From Dehalococcoidia bacterium (GTDB lineage Bacteria; Chloroflexota; Dehalococcoidia; Lucifugimonadales; UBA3495): a DNA stretch of 38,256 bases. The notes below the pieces were generated by a model, which ran no database searches, had not been told where the DNA came from, and saw only the letters and a program-made list of their open reading frames with translations. A program made the translations under genes and the position numbers. The stretch is from the NCBI GenBank assembly GCA_027249445.1, contig JAPNTN010000099.1:1-38256 (forward strand). The letters are read 5' to 3'. Positions 16,801 through 33,678 of the stretch are shown here, in pieces (within the stretch, counting starts at the first letter, position 1; each line of letters starts with the position of its first letter).

Positions 16801-17580
16801 ATGATATCAGAGCAACATACGTCTGAGTGCATAAATATAAGTGCTTTGACCAAGACTTATGTAGTAAACGGGACTACAGAGTTGATCTTATCCGATATTG
16901 ATTTATCCGTAGAAGAACGGGGGTTTGTAAGCGTGGTGGGTCCCAGTGGTTGTGGAAAAAGTACGCTTTTGAACATCATCGCGGGTTTAGATGAGCCCGA
17001 CTCAGGATCCATATACATTAAGGGAATTAATGGGCCCCGATTGGGTAAAATTGGATATATGCAGCAAAAGGATCTGCTGTTGCCTTGGAGAACTGTCTTA
17101 GAGAATGCTGCACTCGGATTAGAGACGCAAGGGATGTCTAAGAAGGATGCCAGAGAGAGGGTCCTGTCTGAGATAGAAACGTTCGGGTTGTCCGGCTATG
17201 AGAACATGTACCCCTATTCGTTGTCAGGGGGTATGCGCCAGAGGGTAGCTTTTCTGAGAACCATGGTAATGGATCAATCTATAGTGCTACTTGATGAGCC
17301 TTTCGGTGCCTTGGACTCTCTCACTAGAGTACAGATGCAGAGATGGTTGCTCGATATATGGGAAGTGATGAATAAGACAATACTGTTGGTGACACATGAT
17401 GTTGATGAGGCTTTGTTTTTGTCGGATACCATATGTCTTTTATCGGCTAGGCCTGGTGCTAACGCTTCCACGATGAATGTTGACTTACCGAGGCCTAGAG
17501 AGAGCCATATGTTGAGTAAACCTGAGTTCTTCACAATGAGGCAAGATGTATTGTCTGGCTTGTGGTCATATATCGATTAA
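16801..17580 (+). CDS. thiZ: ABC transporter ATP-binding protein (NitT/TauT family), predicted thiamin-pyrimidine (HMP/FAMP) importer ATPase
   Basis: Walker A GPSGCGKST, signature LSGGMRQRV, Walker B LLDEPFGALD. First gene after the TPP riboswitch. The substrate is inferred from context. Confidence 0.8.
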   Translation: MISEQHTSECINISALTKTYVVNGTTELILSDIDLSVEERGFVSVVGPSGCGKSTLLNIIAGLDEPDSGSIYIKGINGPRLGKIGYMQQKDLLLPWRTVLENAALGLETQGMSKKDARERVLSEIETFGLSGYENMYPYSLSGGMRQRVAFLRTMVMDQSIVLLDEPFGALDSLTRVQMQRWLLDIWEVMNKTILLVTHDVDEALFLSDTICLLSARPGANASTMNVDLPRPRESHMLSKPEFFTMRQDVLSGLWSYID

Positions 17581-18398
17581 AAGTTGGTGTGATAATAGGG
17601 TTATTCAATAAATATAAGATAGCCACCTTGGCAGAGTGGGTGATTCCTGGCTTGATCATTTTGGGATTAGTAGTCTTATGGGAAGTGTGTGTGAGGACGA
17701 TGTCTATTCCCGCTTGGCAGTTGCCACCGCCGTCGTCGATCCTAGTTGAATTAGTAGCAAGCATTGATTTACTTTGGCAACACACTGTAGTAACGGTGCT
17801 GGAGATAGTTATAGGATTTGCTATCTCTCTAGTAGTAGGGTTGGTTCTATCGGCTGGGATAGCGTATTCATCACTTCTGCAACGGTCCATTTATCCGATT
17901 GTGATTAGTTCTCAGACAGTACCAATAATTGCGATTGCGCCACTGTTGTTGATCTGGGTTGGATACGGATTGGCTCCGAAGGTGATAATTGTTGCAATAA
18001 TTTGTTTCTATCCGATCGTGGTAAATACTGTTGACGGTTTAAAGGCGATTGATCCTGACATGGTTAATATGATGAGAGCTTTAGGAGCCACAAAGTTTGA
18101 AGTCTTTCGCAAGTTGCAAATCCCCACAGCCCTACCGTTTATATTCTCTGGTATTAAAATTAGCATATCAGTAAGTGTCATAGCAGCTGTTATAGGTGAA
18201 TGGGTTGGGGCTAGTGAGGGATTGGGATATTTAATTATATATTCGCAACCACTGTTTCTAACGTCGAGAGTGTTCGCAGCTATACTAATTTTAGCTGTTC
18301 TGGGAGTGAGTTTGTTCGTAATTGCTGTTCTGTTGGAACGCCTCTCGATGCCTTGGTATTTCAATGAAAAGCGGGCGTCTACTATAAGGAAATTGTAG
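17562..18398 (+). CDS. thiX: ABC transporter permease, predicted thiamin-pyrimidine importer
   Basis: 278-aa multi-TM ORF with an EAA-like loop (MMRALGATKFEVFRKLQIPTALP). GTG start overlapping thiZ by 19 nt. An alternative in-frame GTG at 17589 is possible. Confidence 0.8.
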   Translation: MVIYRLKVGVIIGLFNKYKIATLAEWVIPGLIILGLVVLWEVCVRTMSIPAWQLPPPSSILVELVASIDLLWQHTVVTVLEIVIGFAISLVVGLVLSAGIAYSSLLQRSIYPIVISSQTVPIIAIAPLLLIWVGYGLAPKVIIVAIICFYPIVVNTVDGLKAIDPDMVNMMRALGATKFEVFRKLQIPTALPFIFSGIKISISVSVIAAVIGEWVGASEGLGYLIIYSQPLFLTSRVFAAILILAVLGVSLFVIAVLLERLSMPWYFNEKRASTIRKL

Positions 18399-18456
18399 AG
18401 TCTGAAGGCAGTGAATATCTGAGTCTAATTTATATTCAAAAAGAAGGAAGAGAATT

Positions 18457-19467
18457 ATGTTGTTGAAATTCAGTCGACTGGTAGTAGTAATTATGCTTTT
18501 ATGTGGATTAAGTATATTGGGAATAGCTTGTTCCCAATTTAACGATGCTGCAGATGCTGAATTAGTACCAGTTTCCATAGCTCTAGACTGGTTTCCATGG
18601 GCTAACCACTCTGGCTTGTATGTAGCAAAGGAGAGAGGGTATTTTGAGGAGGAAGGATTAGATGTAAGTATTTATGTTCCGGGTGATCCTTCAACGGTTT
18701 TGCAGACCGTGGCTGCTGGTAAAGATGACTTTGGTATCAGTTATCAACCCGAAGTTCTAATCGCCAGAGAGCAGGATATACCAGTTGTATCTATAATGGC
18801 GATGGTTCAACACCCATTAAATTCTGTGATGGCATTGGAGGAGTCTGGCATTGTTACTCCGAAGGACCTCGAAGGGAAAAAAGTTGGGTCGCCAGGGGTC
18901 CCGTCGGATGACGCTCTCATTGACTCGGTATTAAGAAATGAAGGGTTAACGATTGACGATGTGGAAATGGTTAATGTTGGTTATGATTTGGTAGCTGCAT
19001 TGCTGGCCAAAAGGGTGGACGCAATAATTGGCGCATATTGGGTCCACGAATCCATATCAGCCACTAATCAGGGATATGAATTAAATATCATGAAAATGGA
19101 AGAGAATGGGGTGCCTGATTATTATGAGCTGGTCATAGTTGCTAGCGAATCTAAAATCTCGGAAAGACCTGAGGTTGTTCAGAAATTCGTCAATGGTGTT
19201 ATGAAGGGCTATAAGGATGCTATGGATGATCCCCTGGATGCTGTGGCTCTACTAAAAGAATTGAAGCCGGAGACTGACCTTGAGATAGAAAACCCTGGCG
19301 TTAAGTTGTTGGCCCCATTGTGGTCTACGGAAAATGGCGTGTTCGGTTGGCAAGAAAATGATAGATGGGAAGAATTTGCTCAGTGGATGGTGGAGGCAGG
19401 AAGATTATCTGATTCATCTGGTAGCTCCGAAGCTTTCACAAATAAATTTGTAGCCGATAGCAAGTGA
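18457..19467 (+). CDS. thiY: NMT1/THI5-like substrate-binding lipoprotein, predicted HMP/formylaminopyrimidine binder
   Basis: Signal peptide plus lipobox (LGIAC). LDWFPWANHSGLYVAKERGYFEEEGLDVSIYVPGDPS..AAGKDDFGISYQ matches the NMT1/THI5/ThiY family pattern. AAGGAAG SD. Confidence 0.82.
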   Translation: MLLKFSRLVVVIMLLCGLSILGIACSQFNDAADAELVPVSIALDWFPWANHSGLYVAKERGYFEEEGLDVSIYVPGDPSTVLQTVAAGKDDFGISYQPEVLIAREQDIPVVSIMAMVQHPLNSVMALEESGIVTPKDLEGKKVGSPGVPSDDALIDSVLRNEGLTIDDVEMVNVGYDLVAALLAKRVDAIIGAYWVHESISATNQGYELNIMKMEENGVPDYYELVIVASESKISERPEVVQKFVNGVMKGYKDAMDDPLDAVALLKELKPETDLEIENPGVKLLAPLWSTENGVFGWQENDRWEEFAQWMVEAGRLSDSSGSSEAFTNKFVADSK

Positions 19468-19546
19468 TTGTGGTATATCTGAAGCTCGGAGTTATACCCG
19501 GGTTCATTTCAAATTAACTTAGCTAGATAGCAACATTAGAGGTGTT

Positions 19547-19906
19547 ATGCCATTATATTTTCTGCTTGGTACGTTGAATGAGAATGGGCAAAGCATGTTA
19601 CTTAACAATCCTGATTTGGTTATAGATGCCATAAAGGACTGTGATTGTGATGAGGCCCAAATACTTGGTAAATATTTCGTTCTGGGACGCTGTGACTATG
19701 TGATGTTAATCGAAGCCGACGATAATGAGGCTGTTGGTAAACTAGCAATAGAGATAGGTGTCAAAGCGGGGCTGCATACTGAAACTTTGCCCGCAATGGC
19801 AATTGGAGATATGGCGGAAGGCGATAACTTAGCTAGTGGTTCGGATTTTGATTCAGTAGATATTGTGGCTGGAGAAGAATGGAGATTGCCTGGAAGCGAA
19901 TCCTAG
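19547..19906 (+). CDS. GYD-domain family protein (function unknown) with acidic C-terminal tail
   Basis: 119-aa ORF with AGAGG SD. MPLYFLLGTLNENG...ILGKYFVLGRCDYVMLIEADDNEAVGKLAIEIGVKAGLHTETLPAMAI follows the GYD-family pattern as I remember it. Family call is by eye only. Confidence 0.7.
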   Translation: MPLYFLLGTLNENGQSMLLNNPDLVIDAIKDCDCDEAQILGKYFVLGRCDYVMLIEADDNEAVGKLAIEIGVKAGLHTETLPAMAIGDMAEGDNLASGSDFDSVDIVAGEEWRLPGSES

Positions 19907-19918
19907 AGAGAATAAATA

Positions 19919-20566
19919 ATGAGTACATCTGAAGATCTTAGAAGCACTGTATCAGACGTTTGGGATAGGGTGGTTAATCACAAGTTTGTGAATGAATTGG
20001 GTAGCGGGACGCTTGCTACCGCGGTATTTAATGATTATTTTGATCAAGATTATCTGTTTCTAAGAGATTGGGCAATATTGCTGGGAATGGCATCTGTTAA
20101 ATCCCCTGATTTTCATAGCTCACGGCAGATTGTTGGCTTTTTACATCTTGGTTTGGGTGGGGAAGAAGGGCTGTTTCAGAGGGCATTCAGGGAACGTGGG
20201 TTAGATCAAACGTCGATTTTATCCATGGAATATTTTCCAGATACACTTAACTACAGTGGATATCTTAGGACATGTGCTTATGAGGGATCGTTTATAGACG
20301 TTATTGTGACTTTATTGGCAGTTGAATGGCCATATTTGAATTGGGCAGAGAGGTTGTTTAACGCTGGTATGAATCCTGGTAACTATTACTATAAAACATG
20401 GATAGATATACATGTTAGTGATGGTATGTACGCCTTTGTTAATTGGATGATAGAGACTGTGGACAATCACGTTTTTACAGACGTAGAACGACACAGAGCA
20501 GAACAAATCTTCGCTAACGTCCTACGATTTGAAGAGATATTTTTTGATATGTGTTACAAGGACTAG
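19919..20566 (+). CDS. tenA: TenA-family aminopyrimidine aminohydrolase (thiaminase II), apparently the Cys-less TenA_E type
   Basis: 215-aa helical ORF with [28 protein letters not shown] and [11 protein letters not shown], typical of TenA/PqqC-like proteins. Operon context with thiD. Confidence 0.85.
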
Positions 20567-20568
20567 AC

Positions 20569-21378
20569 ATGACCACGAGCAACAAACGGACAATTCCTAG
20601 TGCTATGACTATAGCCGGGTCGGACTCTGGAGGAGGGGCTGGGATACAGGCAGATTTGAAGACCTTTTCTGCTCTAGGTGTTTTTGGAACATCATGTATA
20701 ACGGCTATAACTGCGCAAAATACGGTTGGTGTGAGAGGTATCCATGAAATACCAGAGGAACTCATTGCAGATCAGATCACATGTGTTTTGGAAGACATAG
20801 GAGCTGATGCAGTTAAGACCGGTATGTTGTCGAGCATTGGAATAGTTGAGACTGTTTCTACTGAATTGAGCAAACATGACGTAGCAAATCTGGTAGTAGA
20901 TCCGGTAATGATAGCTAAGAGTGGAGATGCTTTGCTTAAGAGTGAAGCAGTTCAGGCTGTGAGGGATTTGATGTTACCGCTGGCGACTGTTGTGACTCCT
21001 AACATACCAGAAGCGGAAGTGCTTACTGAATTGAGCATTAATTCTATAGAAGATATGAAAGCTGCCGCAAAAGCGTTGGTAGGCATGGGGTGTAACGCTG
21101 CTGTAGTGAAAGGTGGGCATATGATGGGCCCCGCTTCCGATCTGCTTTATGATGGATCGGAGTATCATGTCTTTTCTGTAGAACGTATAGATACTGTAAA
21201 TACCCACGGGACTGGATGCACCTTTGCGTCTGCTATTGCGGCTGGTTTGGCTAAACGGCTGACATTATATGAATCGGTCTCTGAGGCGAAACAGTATATA
21301 ACTGAGGCAATCCAATCCGAGTTTAATATAGGAAAAGGGCATGGCCCGTTGAACCATTTTCATCGGTTCTGGGAATAG
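20569..21378 (+). CDS. thiD: Hydroxymethylpyrimidine / phosphomethylpyrimidine kinase
   Basis: [27 protein letters not shown] and [17 protein letters not shown] are ThiD hallmarks. I prefer the ATG at 20569 (AAGGA 7 nt upstream, just after the tenA stop) over the track start at 20551. Confidence 0.93.
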
Positions 21379-21762: not shown

Positions 21763-22812
21763 CTATAAATTTCTTTGGGGCTGGTTGTATTCAGCTAGTT
21801 TATTGTAGATTTGAATCCTATTTCTTTGGGTGTCACCGATAAGAATTTGGCTTTTTACATTGTCGAATACAACGGTTACCGGTAGTGCAAGTCTCCATTC
21901 AGTCTCAGGGTCTTTAACTTCACGACGACGTTGAATGACAGCTGGATTGGCATCTGTCATCATTTGGCTCCACATACTGAGATCTCTGGCATCACCCATC
22001 AAGGAGGTTATGAAACGCCCGTCGGGTGAGTATATCTGTATTCTACTATTTGCCCAGTCACAGACGTAAACATCACCGGAATCGTCAACAGACACATCGG
22101 ATGGTCTGATCAGTTCTCCTCTGCCTGTGCCCGAAGAGCCAAATATAGCCAAGACTTCTCCGGTTGGGCCAAATTTTTGAACTCTGTCATTTTTGTGGTC
22201 TGCCACATAGGTATTGTTTTCTGAATCAATAGCGATCCCCCATGGGGAGTCAAGCATCCCTGGATCACTTCCTTGAGAACCCCATTCACGAATGAAGTCA
22301 CCATCTAGGCTAAACTGGGATATTTTATGTCCGTGACTTTCCACAATATATATTTCTTGTGAATTGCTGATTGCAATGCCAGATGGACCCTGCAATAGAC
22401 TTCCGTCTGGTTTCTTACCTTGCCAGGATTTTAAGAAGTTACCCTCGCTGTCGAATATAGAGACTGAATTCAAAAATTCATCAGATACGAATACCCGTTG
22501 TTCATGGTCTAACGCGATGGCTGATGGCCAGATAAACTCTCCTGCTCCGTCCCCGTATTTTCCGAACTCGGTTAGAAATGCTTCTTCTCCCTGGCCATTT
22601 CCTAGGTTAAATACACCTACTCGCGTCCCTCTGCCAGTTTTATTCCAAGGGACTGAAGCTATATTTTCGCCGCCACGATTTAAAACGTAGATCGTATTAT
22701 TTGGGCCAATAGCAATGCCGTTTATATCTTGAAAGCCAATTCCAGTTATGCCGCCACGACCGAGACAATAACTGTAATCATATACTCTTCCTGCTGCTAT
22801 TTGAGTTACCAT
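21763..22812 (-). CDS. NHL-repeat beta-propeller protein
   Basis: 349-aa ORF with roughly six repeats of the NHL pattern (e.g. GPSGIAISNSQEIYIVESHGHKISQF, SPWGIAIDSENNTYVADHKNDRVQKF, RPSDVSVDDSGDVYVCDWANSRIQIY). No signal peptide. Confidence 0.85.
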   Translation of the reverse strand: MVTQIAAGRVYDYSYCLGRGGITGIGFQDINGIAIGPNNTIYVLNRGGENIASVPWNKTGRGTRVGVFNLGNGQGEEAFLTEFGKYGDGAGEFIWPSAIALDHEQRVFVSDEFLNSVSIFDSEGNFLKSWQGKKPDGSLLQGPSGIAISNSQEIYIVESHGHKISQFSLDGDFIREWGSQGSDPGMLDSPWGIAIDSENNTYVADHKNDRVQKFGPTGEVLAIFGSSGTGRGELIRPSDVSVDDSGDVYVCDWANSRIQIYSPDGRFITSLMGDARDLSMWSQMMTDANPAVIQRRREVKDPETEWRLALPVTVVFDNVKSQILIGDTQRNRIQIYNKLAEYNQPQRNL

Positions 22813-22889
22813 GCAACCTCCGCGGTGTACCGCGTATTGAACAAGTACACAAAGTGGGATTGTTATTTCTATGTGAGAACTTTGGGAGG

Positions 22890-24017
22890 CTAGATGAAAG
22901 CGGGCTTTTCAAACACACCTTTGACTATTGGATTTGCGTCCAGCCCTAACCAATCTTCAATTATTGTGGAGTAGAAGCCTCTAAAATCTAGATTGGGTAC
23001 CAAATCTCCCTGTTGTAATGTCTCCGGCTTTAGAGATGGGTATTCTCCATAAAATCCGCCTTTAACAGGGTCTCCCATTACGAATGCAGCTCCTGCAGCG
23101 CCATGGTCGGTCCCTGAGCCATTGTCTTTTACTCGTCTTCCGAATTCAGAGAACAGAACCATGATGACGTTATCAGCAGCGTCATGCTCCCGCAGATCAT
23201 CAAAGAAATCCCCAATAGCTTGGGATACATCGGTCCATAACTGGGAGAGCATGCCTTCCTGGTTAGCGTGGGAATCAAAACTTCCATAATCGCAATAAAA
23301 TATCCTAGTACCCACGTTCGCTAGATGGATTTGTGCAATGTTTTTCAGACGTCTACCTATTGTGGAATCTGAGTATTCTACGGTAGATGAATACATGCCG
23401 GGAGCCACTTTCAATATGTCCGCACCTTCCATAGCTTCAAGGCCTGTATCCCCTAGGTAATTCATTACGAAGTCTGAACCTACAGTAGGGCTGTACATAC
23501 GGCTAAATCTATCTATAATTTTACTTCTTTGTAACTCGCTTGATATTCCTGTGAGTAGGCCATAGCTTTCAAGATTATCTACAGCTGCTACAGGTACGCC
23601 TGGCAGAGAAACTGCTCTGAACATGCTGGGACCAATACTTACCGTAGTAACTACGTTTTCTTTACGTGGATCAAGGTCTCTAGCAGCCATCCCTAACCAT
23701 CCCTCGGTCCCCATCTTGTCAGGTTCGCATGTGTGCCATATATCCATAGACCTGAAGTGGGATCTGGGAGAGTCGGGATACCCTACTCCGTGGACAACTG
23801 CTACGTTCCCTTGGTTGAATAGATTCTGTATTACTCCCATGCTGGGGTGAAACCCGAGGGAGTCATTAATCTTCAATATGTCTGAGTCAGGGATGCCCAC
23901 AGCCTGACGGGCGTCTCTATACAGCGGGTCTGTGTAGGGTATTACCGTGTTTAGGTAGTCGTTTCCGCCTGATAGTTGAAGAACTACGATTACAGGGTCT
24001 TTTGTAGTAGATGTCAT
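22890..24017 (-). CDS. DUF1501-family protein (sulfatase/alkaline-phosphatase-like), no Tat/Sec signal
   Basis: 375-aa ORF with VIVVLQLSGGNDYLNTVIPY, HGVGYPDSPRSHFRSMDIWHT, GWLG, FDSHANQ and TDHG, matching DUF1501 conserved blocks. Confidence 0.85.
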   Translation of the reverse strand: MTSTTKDPVIVVLQLSGGNDYLNTVIPYTDPLYRDARQAVGIPDSDILKINDSLGFHPSMGVIQNLFNQGNVAVVHGVGYPDSPRSHFRSMDIWHTCEPDKMGTEGWLGMAARDLDPRKENVVTTVSIGPSMFRAVSLPGVPVAAVDNLESYGLLTGISSELQRSKIIDRFSRMYSPTVGSDFVMNYLGDTGLEAMEGADILKVAPGMYSSTVEYSDSTIGRRLKNIAQIHLANVGTRIFYCDYGSFDSHANQEGMLSQLWTDVSQAIGDFFDDLREHDAADNVIMVLFSEFGRRVKDNGSGTDHGAAGAAFVMGDPVKGGFYGEYPSLKPETLQQGDLVPNLDFRGFYSTIIEDWLGLDANPIVKGVFEKPAFI

Positions 24018-24054
24018 AACTTAACCTTTCTAATCAATTGATGTAAATTAATCT

Positions 24055-25449
24055 TTATTGGTATTGGTACTCGCGCGTTGCAACTATTAGTTGCAGCATT
24101 TCTGCGATACGGTCCGATGAAATCTTGTCATCCGACCAAGTTAAATCACCTAATTCTGAAGCGTGTCCGACTAGCTGGCCTTTAGTCTCTTCTTGTACTT
24201 CTACTGGCCCAAGTATGTCCAAACACGTGTCAACGAAAGCGCTCACATCGAGATTGCCTTTGGATTTTATTCTGTAGATTATATCTTGTATGCCTGGTTT
24301 CCCTGTGTCTCCTACCATGTCCGCCGTGAAGTTTATACGCTTCATTAACGTACCACTATTAATCCATTCTGACCCTGTATGCCAGCCTTCTACGCTGGGA
24401 GGTCCGAGTAGGTCTTGCCCCATATATCCCGGTTCCTTGGCTAGGTTACCAATACCCGGTTTTGGGAACTCATATCCACCTACTAGTCTCATGGTTCCTA
24501 CTACCACTTCCACTGGGCTCTTGATTTTCTCAAAACGGGCTTCTTTAAAGAATTCGGAATTGAACAGAACTCTCAAAACGGACTTCATATCATAGTTAGA
24601 TTCTCGGAATGTATCAGCCAACAACTGAACAGCCTCTTCATTCCTTGGCGGTTCGACTGACCAAGCTGGCACTTGGGGTTCATCTGCGACGAAGAAATTG
24701 TATAAGTGGCGTGCTATAAATCTACCAGTGGCTGGATGAGCACACACGATATCGATAATATCTTCACCGTTGAAGTTGCCAGTATGGCCTAAGAATGTCT
24801 TTTCGCCTTCGTCGTGGTCTTCCTCTTGGTATTCAAAAGACCAGTCGAATCTACCGGTTCCGCTTCCCCTTGGTATCATCGGGGTGATGGTCCAACCAGT
24901 AAAGGCCCGTGAACATTCCCTGACGTCATCTTCGGTGTAGTTGCCTACTCCCATGCTGAATAATTCGAGGAGTTCTCTCCCCCAATTCTCGTTTACAGCG
25001 TATGAGTGGTTGTCGCAGTTATCCAGCCAGTAGATCATGGCAGGATTTTTGGCTAGTGCAACGAGGAGCTCTCTGTAATCTCCCATGCCCATATCTCTGA
25101 ACATATCTATTTGGTGGATGACCTCGTGGTAATGGTCTATTTTAGAGTAACCAGTAGCGAATACTTGGTGCCAGAAGAGGACCATTTTTTCTTGTAATAC
25201 TCTTTGGGTGCTAACCATGTCGTGTAGCCATCCCGCTCCGCCCATGCCGGACGATGTTATAGGTTTCCAGAAATGCGGGTGGTACCTGAGGAATTCTAGC
25301 CTGTCTGAGCTCAATTGGGTGTCTGGATTTAGTAGTTCTTCAACTGTTGCGTCGTATCCTATGGATGCTCTGCGCTCTAGTTCTGTTCGAGAGGCCCCGA
25401 ATCCAGCCCTACGCATTAAATGAGCAATTAATTCAATATCATTGTTCAT
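24055..25449 (-). CDS. DUF1800-family protein
   Basis: 464-aa ORF. AHLMRRAGFGASRTELE...VEELL, HFWKP, WHQVFAT and NENWGRELLELFSMGVGNYTEDDV match the DUF1800 pattern. It sits directly upstream of DUF1501, the usual pairing. Confidence 0.85.
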   Translation of the reverse strand: MNNDIELIAHLMRRAGFGASRTELERRASIGYDATVEELLNPDTQLSSDRLEFLRYHPHFWKPITSSGMGGAGWLHDMVSTQRVLQEKMVLFWHQVFATGYSKIDHYHEVIHQIDMFRDMGMGDYRELLVALAKNPAMIYWLDNCDNHSYAVNENWGRELLELFSMGVGNYTEDDVRECSRAFTGWTITPMIPRGSGTGRFDWSFEYQEEDHDEGEKTFLGHTGNFNGEDIIDIVCAHPATGRFIARHLYNFFVADEPQVPAWSVEPPRNEEAVQLLADTFRESNYDMKSVLRVLFNSEFFKEARFEKIKSPVEVVVGTMRLVGGYEFPKPGIGNLAKEPGYMGQDLLGPPSVEGWHTGSEWINSGTLMKRINFTADMVGDTGKPGIQDIIYRIKSKGNLDVSAFVDTCLDILGPVEVQEETKGQLVGHASELGDLTWSDDKISSDRIAEMLQLIVATREYQYQ

Positions 25450-28904: not shown

Positions 28905-29717
28905 ATGCCTGAACTTCCTGAGGTAGAGAACACTAAGAGGTACTTAATAGAATCGGGGGTTATTGGAGCTACAATACGTTCTGCCACGGTAACGTGGGCA
29001 AATAGTGTTAAATTCCCTAATGTTGAAGACTTTGTTCTCGATGTGCAGGATAAAACGATTAATGGCATAACACGCAGAGGAAAGTATCTAATACTTAGCT
29101 TGGACTCTGCCAATATACTTGTACTGCATCTCGGCATGACCGGCGGATTAGTGGTTCAACCGATTGATCAAACCAATGCCGGACTAGTTCGGCATTGGTT
29201 TGATTTCTACGATGGTAGACAGCTAAGGTTCATTGATCCCCGTAAGTTTGGTCATTTATGGTTGTTGGAAGGTTTTAGTCAAATAGACCCCAATATGGGC
29301 CCCGAACCGCTTGATCCACAATTTACCTCCGAAGTGCTTGTTGAGATTGTCAAAAATAGGAAAGTGCCTATAAAAGCTCTTTTACTAGAGCAATCCGCTG
29401 TAGCAGGCCTGGGAAATTTATATGCTGATGAGTCATTGTTTGTGTCGGGAATCCATCCTGCATGTCTGTCTGCAGATCTAAATTTGGAGCAAGTTGAATG
29501 TTTGCATACTTCGATTGTGAATACTCTTAAACAATCACTAGAAATATATGATAAGGATCGTGCAGAATTTGGACCTAGCCGCTCCTTTGGTCTACCTAAC
29601 TGGACTATGGTAAGAAATCTTGGGGCACCATGTGTAGCTTGTTCTGTGCCGATGGAAATGATTAGAGTAAGAAATCGCAGTAGTTATTATTGCCCAAATT
29701 GTCAGAAAGCGACTTGA
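28905..29717 (+). CDS. mutM: Formamidopyrimidine-DNA glycosylase
   Basis: Starts MPELPEVE. H2TH region and C-terminal zinc finger CVAC...CPNC. 6 nt after the ileS stop. Confidence 0.95.
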   Translation: MPELPEVENTKRYLIESGVIGATIRSATVTWANSVKFPNVEDFVLDVQDKTINGITRRGKYLILSLDSANILVLHLGMTGGLVVQPIDQTNAGLVRHWFDFYDGRQLRFIDPRKFGHLWLLEGFSQIDPNMGPEPLDPQFTSEVLVEIVKNRKVPIKALLLEQSAVAGLGNLYADESLFVSGIHPACLSADLNLEQVECLHTSIVNTLKQSLEIYDKDRAEFGPSRSFGLPNWTMVRNLGAPCVACSVPMEMIRVRNRSSYYCPNCQKAT

Positions 29718-29742: not shown

Positions 29743-29771
29743 TTGACGGAAGAGATGGCACTGCGTAAACT
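29743..29771 (+). promoter_or_regulatory. Candidate sigma70-type promoter for the 693-aa fusion gene
   Basis: TTGACG (29743-29748), 17 nt, then TAAACT (29766-29771). This would leave a 5' UTR of about 110 nt. Motif match only. Confidence 0.35.
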
Positions 29772-29885
29772 AGGAATTAAGGTACAGATTTGGTGCGCGG
29801 TATTTATGAATGCCAAGCAGTAAATCTGCGATTATTTGTTAATTAAATAACCAATTTACAGCGCGCTACAGGAGGATCAGAAAAG

Positions 29886-31967
29886 ATGGCCGGATACCGG
29901 AAAGATGAAGCACAAGATTGGGCGTGGGAGTCTTTAAAAGGGCAATGGAGTACTCTAGTTACTCCTTTTAATCAAGATAAATCCTACGATGAAGAGGGTA
30001 TGCGCCGGAACATCAGGCACATACATAAACTTGGTACTGTAGGCGCAGGGTGTACGTGGGCGATGGGAGAGTTTTGGAGTTTAACTTTTGATGAGCGCTG
30101 CAGAGTGATGGATACGGTTGCAGATGAATCAAGAGGGAAAATTCTGACGGGAGCGCATGTAACGCATACTTCTACGAAGGACATGATCGAGTTAGCGCAT
30201 AGAGCCGAGACATCTGGTATTGATCTGTTAATGGTCGCTTCTCCGTATATGGTAGCTAAGACCGAGGATCAGGTTTTCGAATACGTTAAACTACTCGCTG
30301 ATAATACCGACATGGCCATTATGTTCTATAACTCACCTCAGTTCGGATTTGTAATGAGCCCACAGGGACTCAAGCGCTTGTGCCAAATTCCAAATGTAGT
30401 TGGTGTTAAAGAGGCTAGTTTTAATCAACAAACTTCTATCGAAACCCATCTGTTGATTGGGAAACAATCAGTTATAAGCACCCCAGACGAATGGATATTT
30501 CACAAGGCTAAGGAACTCGGTTTTCAGCAACAAGTAATGTTTGCTAACACATCCGATTGGCGTTTCGATACACCTGAATGTAATCGATATGTTCAGTTTA
30601 TTGATAAAGCCACTAAAGGGGACCTAGATACCGAGTTCTACAACAAATATTTGAAAGATTTGAAAGCTTTGTCAGACAAATGGTGGGGCGGTACAGTAAA
30701 GAAGTATAGCGGTGTGCTGCCGGCTTCAATGTGCAAATATTGGGGAGAACTGATGGGCATGGCTGGTGGAGGAGTACGTTCGCCACTAATTGATCTAACT
30801 GACGAAGAGAAAGAAACTCTGAAGAGTGAGTTGCTGCCTTTAATTCCGACGGCAGAACATACAGGCTCAGGATCTAGTAGAGATCATGCCGTTTGGCTCA
30901 ATGAGAAGAGTTCTAGGGATACTGATTTCTCTGGGATGATGCTACTGGTTAGTGTTCAGGATATGCCGGAAGCTATTGAAGCTGATATGGGCGGGGCAGA
31001 CATAATAGATGTTAAGAATCTACAAGAAGCTCTAGTAGGTTCAGGACACCCGAATTTAGTAGACGAAGCACGTAAAAAGATTCCTGCTGAAAAACACGTT
31101 AGTGTCACATTGGGCGTTGTTCCGAATCAAGCTGGTACAGTGGCCATGGCTGTTAGAGCGGCGGGTATGTTAAATGCTACGTCCGTAAAAGTAGGATTTT
31201 GCGAGGCTGACTACGAAACTGCTCTAGATATCCTGACTCAGTCTAAAGAAGCACTCTATGGCTATGACACTAAGTTGATAGGTTCTCTGTTTGCAGATAA
31301 CTTATTGTTTGGCGGTTTGGAGCCTAGGCTCATGGTGAAGCTTGCACGGGAATCCGGTTGCGACGGGTTTTTGATCGATACTTTGACCAAAGATGGACGT
31401 AATTTGTTTGACTTTATTCCTGAAAATGAACTTCGGGATATAGTAATGGAAGGGAAAAGTTATGGGTTAAGCACCGCATTATCCGGACATCTTAAACTCA
31501 GTGACCTAGATGAGTTGGCTCGGATAAATCCGGATATCGTTGGTGTGCGGGGAGCCGTTTGCCGTAGCGGTGAACGCGACATGGCCGTAGCACGAGAGGC
31601 CGTAGCTAATTTTAAATATGAGCTTGGATTGCGGAAGAGCGGCGAAATTAATGTACATCAGAATGGGAGTTACCAAAACGGAAATAATGGGTCACAGGGC
31701 CAATCGCAGAATGGTAATGGTAGTGGCTGGGCCGTAGTAGATGGCCGCGGTAAAAATTGCGCAGGCGTGATAGCTGCCTTGACTAGCCAAATCAGTAATG
31801 ATCGTGGTTCCTTAGTTGAAGCTATACTACACGATGCTCTTAATATCTATGATGTTATATACTGGGCTGAACAATCTGGTCATAAGCTGCTTAATAAGAG
31901 GGAAGAGACAGATGGGTTGGTAAGAGTTCTGATTCAGCCCAATGTTAACGGTTCAAACGGACATTAA
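29886..31967 (+). CDS. Three-domain fusion protein: DapA/DHDPS-like class I aldolase + MfnB-like 4-HFC-P synthase (ex-DUF556) + TusA/SirA-like domain
   Basis: Uninterrupted 693-codon ORF with AGGAGG SD. aa 1-325: FYNSP and VVGVKEAS (DapA-family Tyr/Lys). aa 351-585: MMLLVSV..GGADIIDVKN..SVKVGF..FLIDTLTKDG..VGVRGAVC (MfnB pattern). aa 615-685: VDGRGKNCAGV...VLIQP (TusA-like). Domain calls are by eye. Confidence 0.85.
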   Translation: MAGYRKDEAQDWAWESLKGQWSTLVTPFNQDKSYDEEGMRRNIRHIHKLGTVGAGCTWAMGEFWSLTFDERCRVMDTVADESRGKILTGAHVTHTSTKDMIELAHRAETSGIDLLMVASPYMVAKTEDQVFEYVKLLADNTDMAIMFYNSPQFGFVMSPQGLKRLCQIPNVVGVKEASFNQQTSIETHLLIGKQSVISTPDEWIFHKAKELGFQQQVMFANTSDWRFDTPECNRYVQFIDKATKGDLDTEFYNKYLKDLKALSDKWWGGTVKKYSGVLPASMCKYWGELMGMAGGGVRSPLIDLTDEEKETLKSELLPLIPTAEHTGSGSSRDHAVWLNEKSSRDTDFSGMMLLVSVQDMPEAIEADMGGADIIDVKNLQEALVGSGHPNLVDEARKKIPAEKHVSVTLGVVPNQAGTVAMAVRAAGMLNATSVKVGFCEADYETALDILTQSKEALYGYDTKLIGSLFADNLLFGGLEPRLMVKLARESGCDGFLIDTLTKDGRNLFDFIPENELRDIVMEGKSYGLSTALSGHLKLSDLDELARINPDIVGVRGAVCRSGERDMAVAREAVANFKYELGLRKSGEINVHQNGSYQNGNNGSQGQSQNGNGSGWAVVDGRGKNCAGVIAALTSQISNDRGSLVEAILHDALNIYDVIYWAEQSGHKLLNKREETDGLVRVLIQPNVNGSNGH

Positions 31968-31996
31968 TAAACAAATAGGAAACCGATGATTAAGCT

Positions 31997-32036
31997 AAAA
32001 GCCCTTGTTGATGTGATACGACAAGGGCTTTTATTT
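31997..32036. terminator. Bidirectional intrinsic terminator between convergent genes
   Basis: AAAAGCCCTTGT (31997-32008) pairs with ACAAGGGCTTTT (32021-32032), a 12-bp stem extendable by 2 bp. The A-run and T-run flanks allow it to work on both strands. Confidence 0.8.
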
Positions 32037-32049
32037 ACTTGACCACGTT

Positions 32050-33678
32050 TTACTGGGGACTCGCACCATCGTTGTGATCCATAATAGTTCTAAAGAAGTC
32101 CCTGGCGATACAGTCCAGTGGGTTTATCCAATGCTGGCCCCTTTCTCCGCATGTGCCGATATTGTCGAAGGTTAATTCTGAATTAGCCAGTAGAGAGACG
32201 GATAAATCTAGTGATGGTGCGTAAAACAGCGCTGAGGAATATCCGCCACCTCCTCCTGGGTGACCAAAGGTTAATATCGTCTCGCCATTCTCCAATAAGT
32301 GAGTTCTAGTTGCTATGTGATAGCCGTATTTTTGTGGTCCTGCTGCGAGTTCAATTGTTTCATCAACTATCGAAGTTTTTAGGTCGTCTCTGATATCGGA
32401 TAGTATGTCAGAGCCGTTGGGACTCAAAAGGCTGTATCCCCAATAGGCCATATTTTCTGCTGTTGTTACTATTCCGGAAGTGGACCATTGTAGACGCCCA
32501 TCCGCACTCCTGAAGTCTTTGTCTCCGTACATTTTTATTGTTGTGAGGTCCCCAAACCCAAGTGAGTCAAGGGAGTCACCAAACATGGGATTTGCCCCAT
32601 ACCGGCTTCTGTCGGCATATGGTTTAGCCATTGTAGGAGGTATGTTTATCACCGGCCTCAGTCCTGCCTGTATATCAAGTGGTCCAAATAAGTGCTCTTC
32701 GTATAGTTCATGTAGTGGCAAACCTGCGGATTCTTCTGCTATTAGTCCGAGTAGTACTGAACTCCCGCTAGTATATTGGAAACTACCACTAGGAACGGGT
32801 TTTTTGTCGATCAACTTGAGCATGTTAGCTGGTTCCCAAGTCGGTGCAAGCAATACCATCCCTTTTGCTCTCTTGTTCTCAGTTTCAGTGCCTATGCCAG
32901 ATCTCATTCTGAGTAGGTCTCTGACCGTACAATTAGGCATGAATTCTGGGTTTACGGATTGATATCCTTTGTTTTGAGAGAGCAGGTCTGAGACTTGAGA
33001 ATCCAAGGTGTAGAGACCTTGGCTAATCTGTTTCAATATTAATGCTGATAAGAATGTTTTGGATGTACTCATGACGCCAAGAGGTATATCCGGTGTTAGG
33101 GGAGTATCTTCAGAGGCGAATCCAAGAGATTCTGACCAGAGCGTGCCATCTTTATAGACGGAAGCTGATATCCCCATTTTGTAAGAGGCAGCCTCGAACT
33201 CAGATTCTAATGCATCGGAAAACTCTTGCTGTATCGTCTCTGGGAAGCTATCGTAACCGGTTTTTCTAAAAAACGTGGGAGGAGATACTGCACTTGAAAC
33301 GGTGACATAGGTGCTACGCTTGGGAGTTTCATTAACCTCTGAATTATCGGAGGTTTTTAGGCTATCGTCGATTGAATCACTTACTGTGTCGGGATCTTGT
33401 ATGACGTCAGACTCGGTATCAGATCTTACAGATTCATTACTAATTGGTGTAGCAGTTGCCGGTTTATTGGGAATATTTGTTGCCGTGGGTTTATTGGTAG
33501 CCGATAAGTTTTGGTTCTTGTCCATATCTCCCGTTGAGGAGATGGGATTAGCAGGAGCTACAGTCATGTTATCTTGATTGGTTAGTTCTGGTGTTAATTC
33601 TGTGGAGGAGGTGCAACCTGTAATGAGTGTAGTCAGGAGTAATATCGTGAGCGCCAATAGGTAGGTAAGTTTTTTCAA
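32050..33678 (-). CDS. Serine hydrolase (beta-lactamase/PBP-like) lipoprotein with long low-complexity linker
   Basis: TTG start with GAGGA SD. Signal peptide plus lipobox LITGC. About 110 aa of T/S/N/D/P-rich linker. S-x-x-K motif (MSTSKTF) and GHPGGGGG near the C-terminus. TATAAT (33711-33716, minus) lies upstream. Confidence 0.85.
   Translation of the reverse strand: MKKLTYLLALTILLLTTLITGCTSSTELTPELTNQDNMTVAPANPISSTGDMDKNQNLSATNKPTATNIPNKPATATPISNESVRSDTESDVIQDPDTVSDSIDDSLKTSDNSEVNETPKRSTYVTVSSAVSPPTFFRKTGYDSFPETIQQEFSDALESEFEAASYKMGISASVYKDGTLWSESLGFASEDTPLTPDIPLGVMSTSKTFLSALILKQISQGLYTLDSQVSDLLSQNKGYQSVNPEFMPNCTVRDLLRMRSGIGTETENKRAKGMVLLAPTWEPANMLKLIDKKPVPSGSFQYTSGSSVLLGLIAEESAGLPLHELYEEHLFGPLDIQAGLRPVINIPPTMAKPYADRSRYGANPMFGDSLDSLGFGDLTTIKMYGDKDFRSADGRLQWSTSGIVTTAENMAYWGYSLLSPNGSDILSDIRDDLKTSIVDETIELAAGPQKYGYHIATRTHLLENGETILTFGHPGGGGGYSSALFYAPSLDLSVSLLANSELTFDNIGTCGERGQHWINPLDCIARDFFRTIMDHNDGASPQ

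Follow-up and report, generated by a model that had tools for sequence, protein, structure and literature searches.

A three-module SAR202 protein joining a DHDPS-superfamily barrel, an MfnB-family barrel and a TusA-fold domain

Introduction

What could be made by a single polypeptide that carries two lysine-Schiff-base TIM barrels and a sulfur-carrier fold? The question is raised by an open reading frame (ORF) in a 38,256-nt stretch of a Dehalococcoidia bacterium (GenBank assembly GCA_027249445.1, contig JAPNTN010000099.1; called the window below). An initial annotation, made by reading the letters, described it as a monocistronic fusion of a DapA-like aldolase, an MfnB-like furan synthase and a TusA-like domain. 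MfnB is an unusual enzyme with five reaction types in one active site. The SAR202 bacteria are uncultured and their metabolism is deduced from genome predictions alone. Here we describe the gene, its relatives and its three modules, and weigh what the protein may make.

Results

The gene and its flanking signals

The ORF (29886..31967, + strand) starts with ATG, encodes a complete protein of 693 aa with zero internal stops and ends with the stop codon at 31965-31967. Besides direct reading, it is supported by an identical protein on another record (P0001, protein collection) and by more than 100 full-length relatives among the matches listed (67-85% identity). A Shine-Dalgarno sequence (AGGAGG, 29869..29874, +) was read 11 nt 5' of the ATG. 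Downstream lies an intrinsic terminator (31996..32033, +) with a 15-bp stem, an 8-nt loop and a T-run (-23.2 kcal/mol, z = -5.8), whose stability was equalled by 0 of 200 shuffles. Because this site lies between convergent genes, it may also serve the minus-strand gene ending at 32050. The gene stands alone. The uninterrupted frame, the ribosome-binding site, the strong terminator and the monocistronic arrangement in the initial annotation all hold. Its promoter-like element is weak: a sigma-70-like candidate (TTGACG, 17 nt, TAAACT; 29743..29771, +) has 9/12 matches, but such sites are no more frequent in the region than expected by chance (four found vs 5.0 expected from shuffles).

The frame is divided into three modules by two linkers. 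Linker 1 (aa 326-350; 30861..30935, +) is variable in the junction alignment and contains a semi-conserved H-A-P/V-W-L-N motif. Linker 2 (aa 586-614; 31641..31727, +) is rich in Gly/Asn/Gln and variable in length, as seen from per-column conservation and indels, and it is probably flexible. All three domain assignments hold, DHDPS and MfnB by an HMM domain scan and TusA, whose score is below the Pfam cut-off, by fold and by matches of other family members.

Distribution of fused and split forms

The same three-module fusion is found in 66 of 80 reference-genome (GTDB species) loci, all of them SAR202/Dehalococcoidia MAGs. In 13 of the 80, from more distant relatives, there are two adjacent genes instead, a DHDPS-like one followed by MfnB+TusA; both have a ribosome-binding site of their own, and a stop / SD / ATG junction lies at the start of module 2. 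This junction was seen in the 13 genome loci (L070-L079, L081-L083) and in the metagenome contigs L084-L086. The split point in this sister clade is exactly the linker between modules 1 and 2, so that linker 1 is equivalent to the intergenic gap of the split forms. Among GTDB species genomes 125 relatives were found, and there are more than 500 homologous protein clusters, the best 120 of which are all full length. At 50% identity the fused architecture forms a single cluster among 1.84 billion representatives. The fusion is confined to the SAR202 lineage, is widespread within it and is absent from the other lineages sampled. The three modules are under strong purifying selection and are passed on as a set, in one fused gene or in two neighboring ones, and each retains the catalytic core of its family (K175/Y148 in module 1, D375/K377/K435/D498 in module 2 and C625 in module 3).

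An assembly or sequencing artefact, with two or three genes joined via a missed stop or a frameshift, would find some support in the split form of certain SAR202 lineages and in fragmented versions on low-coverage long-read contigs. Against it, a continuous fused frame of 672-723 aa is shared by 69 independent loci from different projects and assemblers, the linker holds a semi-conserved motif, protein P0001 is identical, and locus L005 is 100% identical to the fusion as far as its contig end. On the strength of the 69 independent loci we reject an artefact; its probability is close to nil and it is already effectively refuted. A third arrangement with free-standing TusA-like genes was also rejected: the short matches sit on 2x-6x long-read contigs where neighboring genes are broken as well.

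The three-module single protein of the initial annotation is thus corroborated by the 69 assemblies and by the sister clade split at the module 1/2 linker. Its view of the architecture as unfamiliar was half right: the fusion is uncharacterized (one cluster at 50% identity), and a literature search found no paper on a SAR202 aldolase–MfnB–TusA fusion protein, but it is not rare within SAR202. Together the split and fused forms provide a clean Rosetta-stone link between the parts.

Module 1, a DHDPS-superfamily barrel

Module 1 (aa 1-325; 29886..30860, +) is a DHDPS/NAL-superfamily TIM barrel according to Pfam, a PDB profile search, AlphaFold, Foldseek and a residue table. Pfam DHDPS (PF00701) matched aa 18-315 (E 1.6e-32, 112.9 bits vs a cut-off of 22.1) and the PDB profile search gave E 2e-55 over the full length. 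The AlphaFold model (pLDDT 95) shows a TIM barrel plus a helical domain, with TM scores of 0.77/0.86 to DHDPS and NAL structures. Module 1 shares with DapA the full-length barrel with its C-terminal helical domain, the Schiff-base Lys161 (K175 in VVGVKEAS, codon 30408-30410), the Tyr133 equivalent (Y148 in FYNSP), the G-E of the GxxGE loop and K284/R298 of the C-terminal motif. Lys175 and Tyr148 are invariant in 84 family sequences. The module is approximately 35 aa longer than DapA and has a conserved FANTSDWRFDTPE segment.

The substrate site is different. An invariant W58-x-M60-G-E-F-W64 motif is present, and the Thr-Thr motif of the pyruvate-carboxylate site is replaced by W-x-M: the Gly43 position of DapA is Trp and the Thr45 position is Met, both invariant, while the Thr44 position is N, G or A and the Tyr107 position is Met or Phe among the 84 sequences. 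DapA binds aspartate semialdehyde through Arg138; none of the 84 sequences has a residue in that column. The NCBIfam dapA equivalog (TIGR00674) scored 88 bits vs a cut-off of 206.15. Since Thr44/Thr45, Tyr107 and Arg138 are missing and the dapA score is this low, module 1 is not DapA. It falls far below each NCBIfam subfamily cut-off (DapA, NanA, KdgD, HpaI and KD(P)G aldolase), and NCBIfam gives no subfamily for the module or its relatives. A weak full-length match to the archaeal KD(P)G aldolase was found, and the weak best matches include KdgD, a dehydratase, so the module need not be an aldolase. The DapA-like aldolase of the initial annotation is therefore correct as to superfamily and exact as to the FYNSP Tyr and the VVGVKEAS Lys; the protein is not DapA and aldolase activity is uncertain.

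NahE/PhdJ (PDB 6DAO, 6DAN) are DHDPS-family hydratase-aldolases that join pyruvate to aromatic or heteroaromatic aldehydes. Like module 1 they have about 330 aa and the Schiff-base Lys and Tyr, and the DapA-Thr45 position is hydrophobic in both (Phe in NahE, Met in module 1). By analogy, they are a conceivable mechanistic model for addition of pyruvate to a furan aldehyde. Membership of module 1 in the NahE subgroup was rejected, as the family HMM gives NahE 24 bits vs 62 for E. coli DapA; module 1 also lacks Trp224, Asn157 and Asn281, the NahE signature. Its closest standalone relatives are found in transporter/catabolic clusters that also encode ABC binding proteins, UbiD and acyl-CoA dehydrogenases.

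Module 2, an MfnB-family barrel

Module 2 (aa 351-585; 30936..31640, +) is assigned to the MfnB family (4-HFC-P synthase-like TIM barrel; EC 4.2.3.153) by Pfam, the match to PDB 4RC1, residue comparison and a tree. Pfam 4HFCP_synth (PF04476) matched aa 353-576 (E 6e-54, 183.6 bits vs a cut-off of 22.4), and 4RC1 (MJ1099) matched with E 2e-42. In MfnB, two Asp and two Lys residues are essential, and the Schiff base is formed by Lys27 (PMC6604932). Counted from Met351, D375, K377 (codon 31014-31016) and K435 are at positions 25, 27 and 85 and align with D25, K27 and K85 of MJ1099, exactly as the initial annotation had placed the DIIDVK Asp/Lys and the SVKVG Lys. D151 and K155 of MJ1099 are retained as D498 and K502. 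Fold and all four essential residues are thus shared with MfnB, and D375, K377, K435 and D498 are invariant in 85 SAR202 sequences. Further MfnB residues are retained (K155, D124, R208 and C212). The standard phosphate-binding Gly/Arg positions of MfnB are also kept.

Comparison of the 85 SAR202 sequences with 65 standalone MfnBs revealed MfnB positions, at least 90% conserved, that are uniformly replaced in module 2: P29L, G32A, L34V, A36S, D61V, Y122F and A186S. The scores fall short of both NCBIfam MfnB equivalogs (NF002573, 182.9 bits vs 341; NF002575, 166.1 vs 304), and the Pfam score (184 bits) is lower than those of standalone MfnBs (215-255). In the MfnB tree, module 2 sits on the longest internal branch (stem 0.43 vs a median of 0.034), with a mean identity of 79% within its clade. 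The fixed changes, the long stem and the lower Pfam score favor a functional shift, as judged by sequence comparison. The closest standalone relative (P0156, 45% identity) adjoins genes for a GHMP kinase and for a PLP decarboxylase from the Pfam family that includes MfnA, from which we conclude that module 2 derives from genuine MfnBs. Of the MfnB-like furan synthase in the initial annotation, the family stands; furan synthesis is only putative, because the equivalog cut-offs are missed and the substitutions are fixed.

Since all residues known to be essential are retained, module 2 could still be an ordinary MfnB, making 4-HFC-P for a methanofuran- or methylofuran-type C1 carrier, with the DHDPS-like and TusA-like parts as accessories (scaffolding, regulation or an unrelated second activity). 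Its 27-47% identity to standalone MfnBs falls inside the MfnB-to-MfnB range of 27-74%, and its sister lineage is in a methanofuran-type gene context. The missed equivalog cut-offs argue the other way, as does the replacement of D61 and Y122 in 85/85 sequences. Furthermore, module 2 is always linked to the TusA-like domain and the DHDPS-like barrel; an ordinary MfnB role would not account for its obligate association with the DHDPS-like gene. Nor does the gene context fit. Annotation of every ORF of at least 120 aa found no mfn or H4MPT gene in the window, in agreement with the initial annotation, and none was found in about 1.8 Mb of flanking DNA from 80+ relatives. Use of methanofuran is not known in the host lineage: the SAR202 genome papers searched mention no H4MPT/methanofuran genes and describe C1 oxidation as tetrahydrofolate-linked. 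Our literature search found no paper connecting SAR202 with methanofuran or formylmethanofuran, no mention of K09733/COG1891 in SAR202 and no MfnB homologs described outside methanofuran/methylofuran biosynthesis; the supplements of two SAR202 papers had no relevant entry. We consider an ordinary MfnB role unlikely.

Module 3, a TusA-fold domain

Module 3 (aa 615-685; 31728..31940, +) was identified from Pfam matches of family members, the AlphaFold model and a fold search. In the protein itself, Pfam TusA (PF01206; aa 617-684) scores 20.9 bits when the whole sequence is scanned and 26.3 when the module is taken alone, just under the gathering cut-off of 28.6. Among 25 diverse family members, 23 match Pfam TusA end to end (E <= 0.01, best 3e-7). 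A profile search of the module 3 sequence against PDB chains gave no match; the fold search found TusA instead. The model (pLDDT 87, beta-alpha-beta-alpha-beta-beta) has its best whole-domain matches in E. coli TusA (3LVJ_C, TM 0.74/0.78; 1DCJ, TM 0.73/0.74), with an rmsd of about 2 Å, followed by SirA-like 3HZ7 (TM 0.68/0.74) and YeeD. Owing to the small size of the domain, Foldseek E-values reach only 0.013-0.024. The TusA/SirA-like assignment made earlier is confirmed by these member matches and by the TM scores of 0.73-0.78 to TusA.

The module shares with the TusA/SirA/YeeD carriers (1DCJ, 3LVJ, 3HZ7, 8K1R) the fold, the D-x-x-G-x-x-C signature (D619-x-x-G622-x-x-C625) with a Cys at the N-terminus of helix 1, and a D...D-V...W...H pattern in the second half of the domain. 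Cys625 (codon 31758-31760) is at the TusA catalytic position (E. coli Cys19), begins helix H14-27 of the model and is invariant in 85 sequences. It is one of about 20 invariant positions in module 3, so its invariance alone is no proof of catalysis. The CPxP motif is not found; the family has C-A-G-V/I instead. Unlike the carriers, module 3 is a C-terminal domain on a flexible linker and not a free 80-aa protein, and its fusion gene has no IscS, DsrE, MnmA or YeeE-type partner encoded nearby. Two further cysteines, Cys56 and Cys492, are SAR202-specific, invariant and near the two barrel active sites.

These features would fit a sulfur-insertion enzyme in which a desulfurase-loaded Cys625 persulfide passes sulfur to a barrel enamine or carbonyl, yielding a sulfur heterocycle or thio-sugar. 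The TusA-like domain, with its fold, signature and invariant Cys, is always joined to the MfnB-like barrel via the flexible linker, and Cys56 and Cys492 could be relay acceptors. ThiG and BexX are Schiff-base TIM barrels that accept sulfur from carrier proteins. The logic would be alike, with a TusA-type donor; what is shared is the concept only, a lysine-imine sugar-phosphate intermediate and a protein-bound sulfur donor. ThiG and BexX are from other barrel families with no sequence relationship detected, and they take sulfur from ThiS/MoaD-type thiocarboxylates, where the fusion would use a TusA-type persulfide. The fusion lacks both an ATP-dependent activation domain and a ThiS/MoaD-type thiocarboxylate carrier, no desulfurase or rhodanese is encoded near the loci, CPxP is lost with the Pfam TusA score below the cut-off, and no known metabolite fits the scheme. 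We regard such an enzyme as quite unlikely. Sulfur insertion remains speculative, as the initial annotation had said; the invariant Cys625 is compatible with it and proves nothing.

Gene neighborhood

The neighbors of the fusion loci form housekeeping synteny (IleRS, Fpg, SbcC and Ffh; or RecG, DegV, FakA and PDT). Aconitase and Trk also occur in the flanks beside RecG, DegV, FakA and PDT. No pathway partner is consistently linked in the 80+ loci, and none of them has a transporter, regulator or catabolic neighbor.

Several candidate partners were considered and rejected. ORFs of 103 aa and 93 aa that follow the split genes encode membrane-like peptides of low complexity and occur on near-identical contigs only. 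F72 and F39, two families located downstream, consist of small membrane-like proteins. The 299-aa ORFs that lack a Pfam match, found next to a standalone DHDPS-like gene and next to a standalone MfnB, are mutually unrelated. ThiD is upstream in 45 fused-clade loci and not in the split clade, and the ThiD/TenA/ThiXYZ linkage was taken as synteny only. An alternative shikimate entry (DKFP/ADH-synthase-like), suggested by a convergent prephenate dehydratase in split loci, was dropped on three grounds: the C6 skeleton produced by MfnB condensation is branched, module 1 lacks Arg138 for aspartate semialdehyde, and no further link to aro genes exists.

The neighborhood also bears on a possible catabolic role, in which module 1 would cleave a 2-keto-3-deoxy (phospho- or sulfo-) sugar acid to pyruvate and GA3P or sulfolactaldehyde, module 2 would remove phosphate or sulfite by beta-elimination and the TusA-like Cys would handle released sulfur species. 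SAR202 bacteria are proposed to metabolize organosulfur compounds and to oxidize sulfite. Also in favor are the transporter/catabolic clusters of the nearest standalone module 1 relatives, the weak match to the archaeal KD(P)G aldolase and the phosphate elimination that is part of MfnB chemistry (PMC6604932). The pattern of a catabolic gene is not matched, however, because the fusion lies among housekeeping genes and is conserved throughout much of the SAR202 lineage; the 80+ loci lack transporter, regulator and catabolic neighbors, and module 2 retains the standard phosphate-binding positions of MfnB. A catabolic role is very unlikely.

Discussion

We give about an even chance to the following explanation: the ORF encodes a genuine trifunctional SAR202 protein, a functionally coupled two-barrel Schiff-base unit that would make a triose-phosphate-derived heterocycle. 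Two predicted catalytically competent lysine-Schiff-base TIM barrels would act jointly, with a TusA-type cysteine domain tethered to them. In the MfnB-like barrel, two triose phosphates would undergo isomerization, phosphate elimination, aldol condensation and cyclization to a heterocyclic C6 aldehyde phosphate. This could be 4-HFC-P itself, but a variant of it is favored by the length of the stem branch and by D61V and Y122F, both of which are fixed. The DHDPS-like barrel, not a lysine-pathway enzyme, may form an enamine on K175 from pyruvate or another 2-oxo acid. It could then add a 2-oxo-acid unit to the aldehyde made next door as a consecutive step, or it could supply triose phosphate through retro-aldol cleavage. 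The reaction order of the two barrels and the use of pyruvate by module 1 are guesses. The TusA-like domain on its Gly/Asn-rich linker may offer Cys625 to a barrel, where this residue could donate a persulfide or serve as a switch, either redox or regulatory. Most likely, the end product is not methanofuran but a small molecule or cofactor precursor specific to the lineage.

A bolder version, which we treat as a long shot, makes the unit the core of a SAR202-confined route in which the Cys625 persulfide would enter the MfnB-type condensation and DHDPS-type enamine extension would follow to a sulfur heterocycle. In a related reading, the unit would not insert sulfur but would stand in, independently of Fe-S, for a core enzyme of heterocycle biosynthesis that is missing. 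If the sulfur route were true, it would mean a new sulfur-containing heterocyclic metabolite or cofactor in a highly abundant dark-ocean lineage.

SAR202 bacteria are among the most abundant deep-ocean bacteria (PMC5395668, PMC6946804). In this lineage, a strongly conserved and self-contained gene couples two multi-step Schiff-base catalysts with a sulfur-carrier fold. An MfnB variant with fixed active-site changes next to a second barrel is a ready case for the study of catalyst diversification, and the fusion may also yield new platform chemicals of the furan type or related ones. Its absence from the other sampled lineages, together with its strong conservation, points to a lineage-specific small molecule or cofactor for which nobody has looked.

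Fusion gene and its window neighbours

The fusion gene (29886-31967, + strand) is a single ORF of 693 codons that opens with ATG and contains no internal stops. A Shine-Dalgarno sequence, AGGAGG, is found at 29869-29874 (+), and a hairpin and T-run terminator (31996-32033, +; 15-bp G+C-containing stem, -23.2 kcal/mol, z = -5.8 versus shuffles) starts 28 nt past the stop codon, as described in the initial annotation. The promoter-like element that was also proposed is weak: the hexamers at 29743-29771 (+) give 9/12 matches, a frequency not above chance for this A+T-rich region. The upstream neighbor fpg (28905-29717, +) is on the same strand and the downstream gene is convergent, so the term monocistronic is fair. 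The convergent gene (32050-33678, - strand), which runs toward the fusion gene's terminator, encodes a serine hydrolase-type protein of the beta-lactamase family; it has a lipoprotein-like signal (LTGC) and, at its N-terminus, ~150 aa of low-complexity sequence rich in Ser/Thr/Asp/Asn. It was not found in any related locus.

Every window ORF of at least 120 aa was annotated. The products include a ribosomal-protein operon, a ThiXYZ-TenA-ThiD pyrimidine salvage cluster, NHL, DUF1501 and DUF1800 proteins, IleRS, Fpg, the beta-lactamase-family protein, SbcC, Ffh and a glycosylase. Neither mfn nor H4MPT genes are among these ORFs, in agreement with the first reading of the window. The salvage cluster (16801-21378, +) consists of an ABC ATPase, a permease, an NMT1/THI5-like binding protein (ThiXYZ type), TenA and ThiD, and suggests that the SAR202 host obtains its pyrimidine by scavenging HMP/FAMP and does not synthesize it. 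The ThiD-IleRS synteny of relatives is broken by three genes in the same orientation (21763-25449, -), which encode an NHL-repeat beta-propeller, a DUF1501 protein and a DUF1800 protein. They look like a local insertion because homologs of each are present in just 2-4 of the other loci.

Distribution of fused and split forms

A search of 5.8 billion clusters found more than 500 relatives of the fusion protein; the best 120 are 572-756 aa long with 67-100% identity, and all carry the same Pfam pair. A GTDB scan (one genome per species) found 125 relatives. Eighty loci were kept, all 80 from Dehalococcoidia, SAR202 or Chloroflexota MAGs (seawater, sponges). A locus from a Tara Red Sea MAG (L005) is 100% identical to the window protein over residues 1-554, where its contig ends. 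The gene is fused in 66/80 loci (672-723 aa) and split in 13/80; the remaining locus is truncated where its contig ends. Split loci have a DHDPS-like gene of ~325 aa and, after a gap of 13-125 bp, a MfnB+TusA-like gene of ~330 aa; within the gap, the first gene stops and the second has a Shine-Dalgarno sequence of its own. The split unit belongs to a more distantly related SAR202 clade (loci L070-L083 and L084-L087), where it lies at about 10.0-12.1 kb in locus coordinates. An exhaustive HMMER search across 1.84 billion 50%-identity representatives returned one fused cluster (P0121), the split halves P0123 and P0124, and fragments. All other matches were standalone DHDPS-like proteins (≤44% identity) or standalone MfnBs (≤45%). 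The TusA-like domain accompanies the MfnB-like barrel in all fused and split forms.

This is a textbook Rosetta-stone pattern, which predicts that the two barrels function together. The pattern also excludes an assembly artefact as the source of the fusion. The architecture, initially described as unfamiliar, is indeed uncharacterized; it is not rare, being widespread within SAR202 though confined there.

The linker between the barrels (30861-30935, aa 326-350) is otherwise variable and has a semi-conserved R-x-H-A-P/V-W-L-N motif in fused relatives, which may be a docking element gained after fusion.

ENA contig ctg471347_115x_l (6.21 Mb) carries the same ~22-kb neighborhood twice, gene for gene, 3.79 Mb apart (L001 at 760 kb and L002 at 4.545 Mb), and a related contig (L003) is 3.76 Mb. 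The repeat has the look of a circular genome that was over-assembled or concatenated, as opposed to a genuine duplication. In two low-coverage long-read contigs labeled 2x and 6x (L095 and L096, ENA ERZ25766727), all three parts of the unit (DHDPS-like, MfnB-like, TusA-like), along with the neighboring DegV and FakA genes, are broken into short ORFs. Such breaks are frameshift artefacts and yield spurious "standalone" TusA-like peptides of 54-147 aa in databases, one of which was named "formylmethanofuran dehydrogenase subunit C" by JGI.

Module 2 is a diverged member of the MfnB family

Module 2 (aa 351-585) matches Pfam 4HFCP_synth at aa 353-576 (183.6 bits) and MJ1099 (4RC1) with an E-value of 2e-42. 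D375, K377 and K435, residues 25, 27 and 85 counted from Met351, align with Asp25, Lys27 and Lys85 of MJ1099, so the catalytic numbering noticed at the outset is exact. In MfnB, two Lys and two Asp are essential, a Schiff base forms on Lys27, and a single active site carries out phosphate elimination, isomerization, aldol condensation, cyclization and dehydration, while other residues have no assigned role (PMC6604932). In a comparison of 85 SAR202 sequences against 65 standalone MfnBs, none of the four essential residues is lost from module 2, and K155, D124, R208 and C212 are likewise kept. Seven positions that are at least 90% conserved in MfnBs are uniformly replaced in SAR202 (P29L, G32A, L34V, A36S, D61V, Y122F and A186S); judging from barrel topology, Asp61 and Tyr122 would lie at the C-terminal ends of beta-strands, the active-site region of a TIM barrel. 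Module 2 scores 183 and 166 bits against the NCBIfam MfnB models (cut-offs 341 and 304), and by NCBIfam neither barrel of the fusion is classed as an equivalog of its named enzyme (MfnB, dapA). The MfnB-like assignment thus stands for family and essential residues and fails for equivalog status; module 2 is best described, from its sequence, as a diverged MfnB.

In a neighbor-joining tree, the SAR202 module 2 sequences are monophyletic and 79% identical among themselves, and their stem is the longest internal branch (0.43 versus a median of 0.034). Tight conservation above a long stem usually marks a functional shift, short of proof, and suggests one here. The sister of this clade is the standalone relative P0156, whose neighbors, a GHMP kinase and a PLP-dependent decarboxylase from the same Pfam family as MfnA, form a real methanofuran context. 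The main rival explanation, that module 2 is a plain MfnB working for a methanofuran-like cofactor that escaped detection, can point to this sister and to the complete set of essential residues; set beside the seven replacements and the sub-cut-off scores, we consider it unlikely. Methanofuran is never mentioned in the SAR202 genome papers searched, which do mention tetrahydrofolate-linked C1 oxidation, and our literature search found no paper on MfnB homologs outside methanofuran/methylofuran biosynthesis.

Module 1 is a DHDPS-superfamily barrel

Module 1 (aa 1-325) matches Pfam DHDPS at aa 18-315 (112.9 bits). Its family profile gives full-length matches to the structures of DHDPS, YagE and NAL (E 2e-55), and its AlphaFold model (pLDDT 95) superimposes on DHDPS and NAL structures with TM 0.77/0.86 at 20-25% identity, with no characterized subgroup preferred. 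In 84 family sequences, the Schiff-base Lys161 and Tyr133 of DapA correspond to invariant K175 (VVGVKEAS) and Y148 (FYNSP). In contrast, DapA Thr44 is replaced by Asn, Gly or Ala, Thr45 by an invariant Met, Gly43 by an invariant Trp (motif W-x-M-G-E-F-W) and Tyr107 by Met or Phe; the Arg138 that contacts aspartate semialdehyde in DapA is deleted. The NCBIfam dapA model gives 88 against a cut-off of 206. The DapA-like reading therefore survives for the catalytic Tyr and Lys, and module 1 is not DapA itself. Against the module 1 family HMM, E. coli DapA scores 62 bits and NahE 24 bits, and the NahE signature residues are missing.

Neither module 1 nor its standalone relatives could be placed in an NCBIfam subfamily; the best hits, which are weak, spread over KdgD, DapA, HpaI and NanA. 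"Aldolase" is an assumption, since KdgD is a Schiff-base dehydratase/decarboxylase. Tyr is found at the Tyr133 position in all SAR202 module 1 sequences. Among 30 standalone relatives (alignment A3), that position is Phe in 13/30 and Tyr in 11/30; some members of this uncharacterized standalone clade may rely on another proton relay or lack catalysis. The nearest standalone relatives are located in transporter and catabolic clusters.

Module 3 and invariant cysteines

Module 3 (aa 615-685), preceded by a Gly/Asn/Gln-rich linker of variable length, is well conserved with 20 invariant positions. Pfam TusA matches aa 617-684 at 20.9 bits, under the gathering score of 28.6; an end-to-end match was obtained in 23/25 diverse members (best E 3e-7). 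TusA D-x-x-G-x-x-C is reproduced by D619-x-x-G622-x-x-C625, while both prolines of CPxP are replaced (C-A-G-V/I). The AlphaFold model (pLDDT 87) is beta-alpha-beta-alpha-beta-beta and places the Cys at the N-terminal end of helix 1. Its best Foldseek matches over the whole domain are E. coli TusA (3LVJ_C, TM 0.74/0.78; also 1DCJ), SirA-like 3HZ7 and YeeD/TsuB; the small size of the domain keeps their E-values weak (0.013-0.028). Module 3 is thus a TusA-fold domain retaining its cysteine, in line with the original TusA/SirA-like assignment. The other invariant cysteines are C56 (beside the module 1 active-site loop) and C492 (in module 2), both specific to the SAR202 fusion family, and C559, which is common to all MfnBs. 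A sulfur-inserting role for the fusion protein would make use of the retained Cys625; with the CPxP prolines lost, we regard it as improbable.

Genomic context and proposed function

Fused-clade loci place the gene within a conserved run of housekeeping genes (ThiD, IleRS, Fpg, fusion gene, then SbcC and Ffh), with ThiD within 10 kb upstream in 45 related fused-clade loci, which is not so in the split clade. There, the unit lies between RecG/DegV/FakA and convergent prephenate dehydratase and Trk genes. Comparison of both neighborhoods found no common neighbor and, in either clade, no obvious pathway partner. A catabolic role agrees with the setting of module 1's standalone relatives and is at odds with the fusion gene's own context; we think it very improbable.

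In L001-L003, an IS630-type transposase (HTH + DDE_3), intact or split, is found between ileS and fpg at about 7.7-8.9 kb (locus coordinates), just upstream of the fusion gene, and an additional copy lies downstream in L003. The block, conserved in other respects, thus has active mobile elements.

The comparisons show the fusion protein to be real, selected, lineage-restricted and functionally coupled, with three modules whose catalytic cores are intact. We propose, with confidence falling at each step, that both barrels would be active Schiff-base catalysts on consecutive steps; that module 2 would condense two triose phosphates by MfnB-type chemistry to 4-HFC-P or a variant; that module 1 might add a 2-oxo-acid-derived unit to module 2's aldehyde or supply triose phosphate; and that Cys625 could deliver sulfur or act as a redox or regulatory switch. 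The observation behind the initial annotation stands, and its interpretation was largely right. The SAR202 protein joins domain families that are known into a conserved arrangement that is new and bears signs of neofunctionalization.
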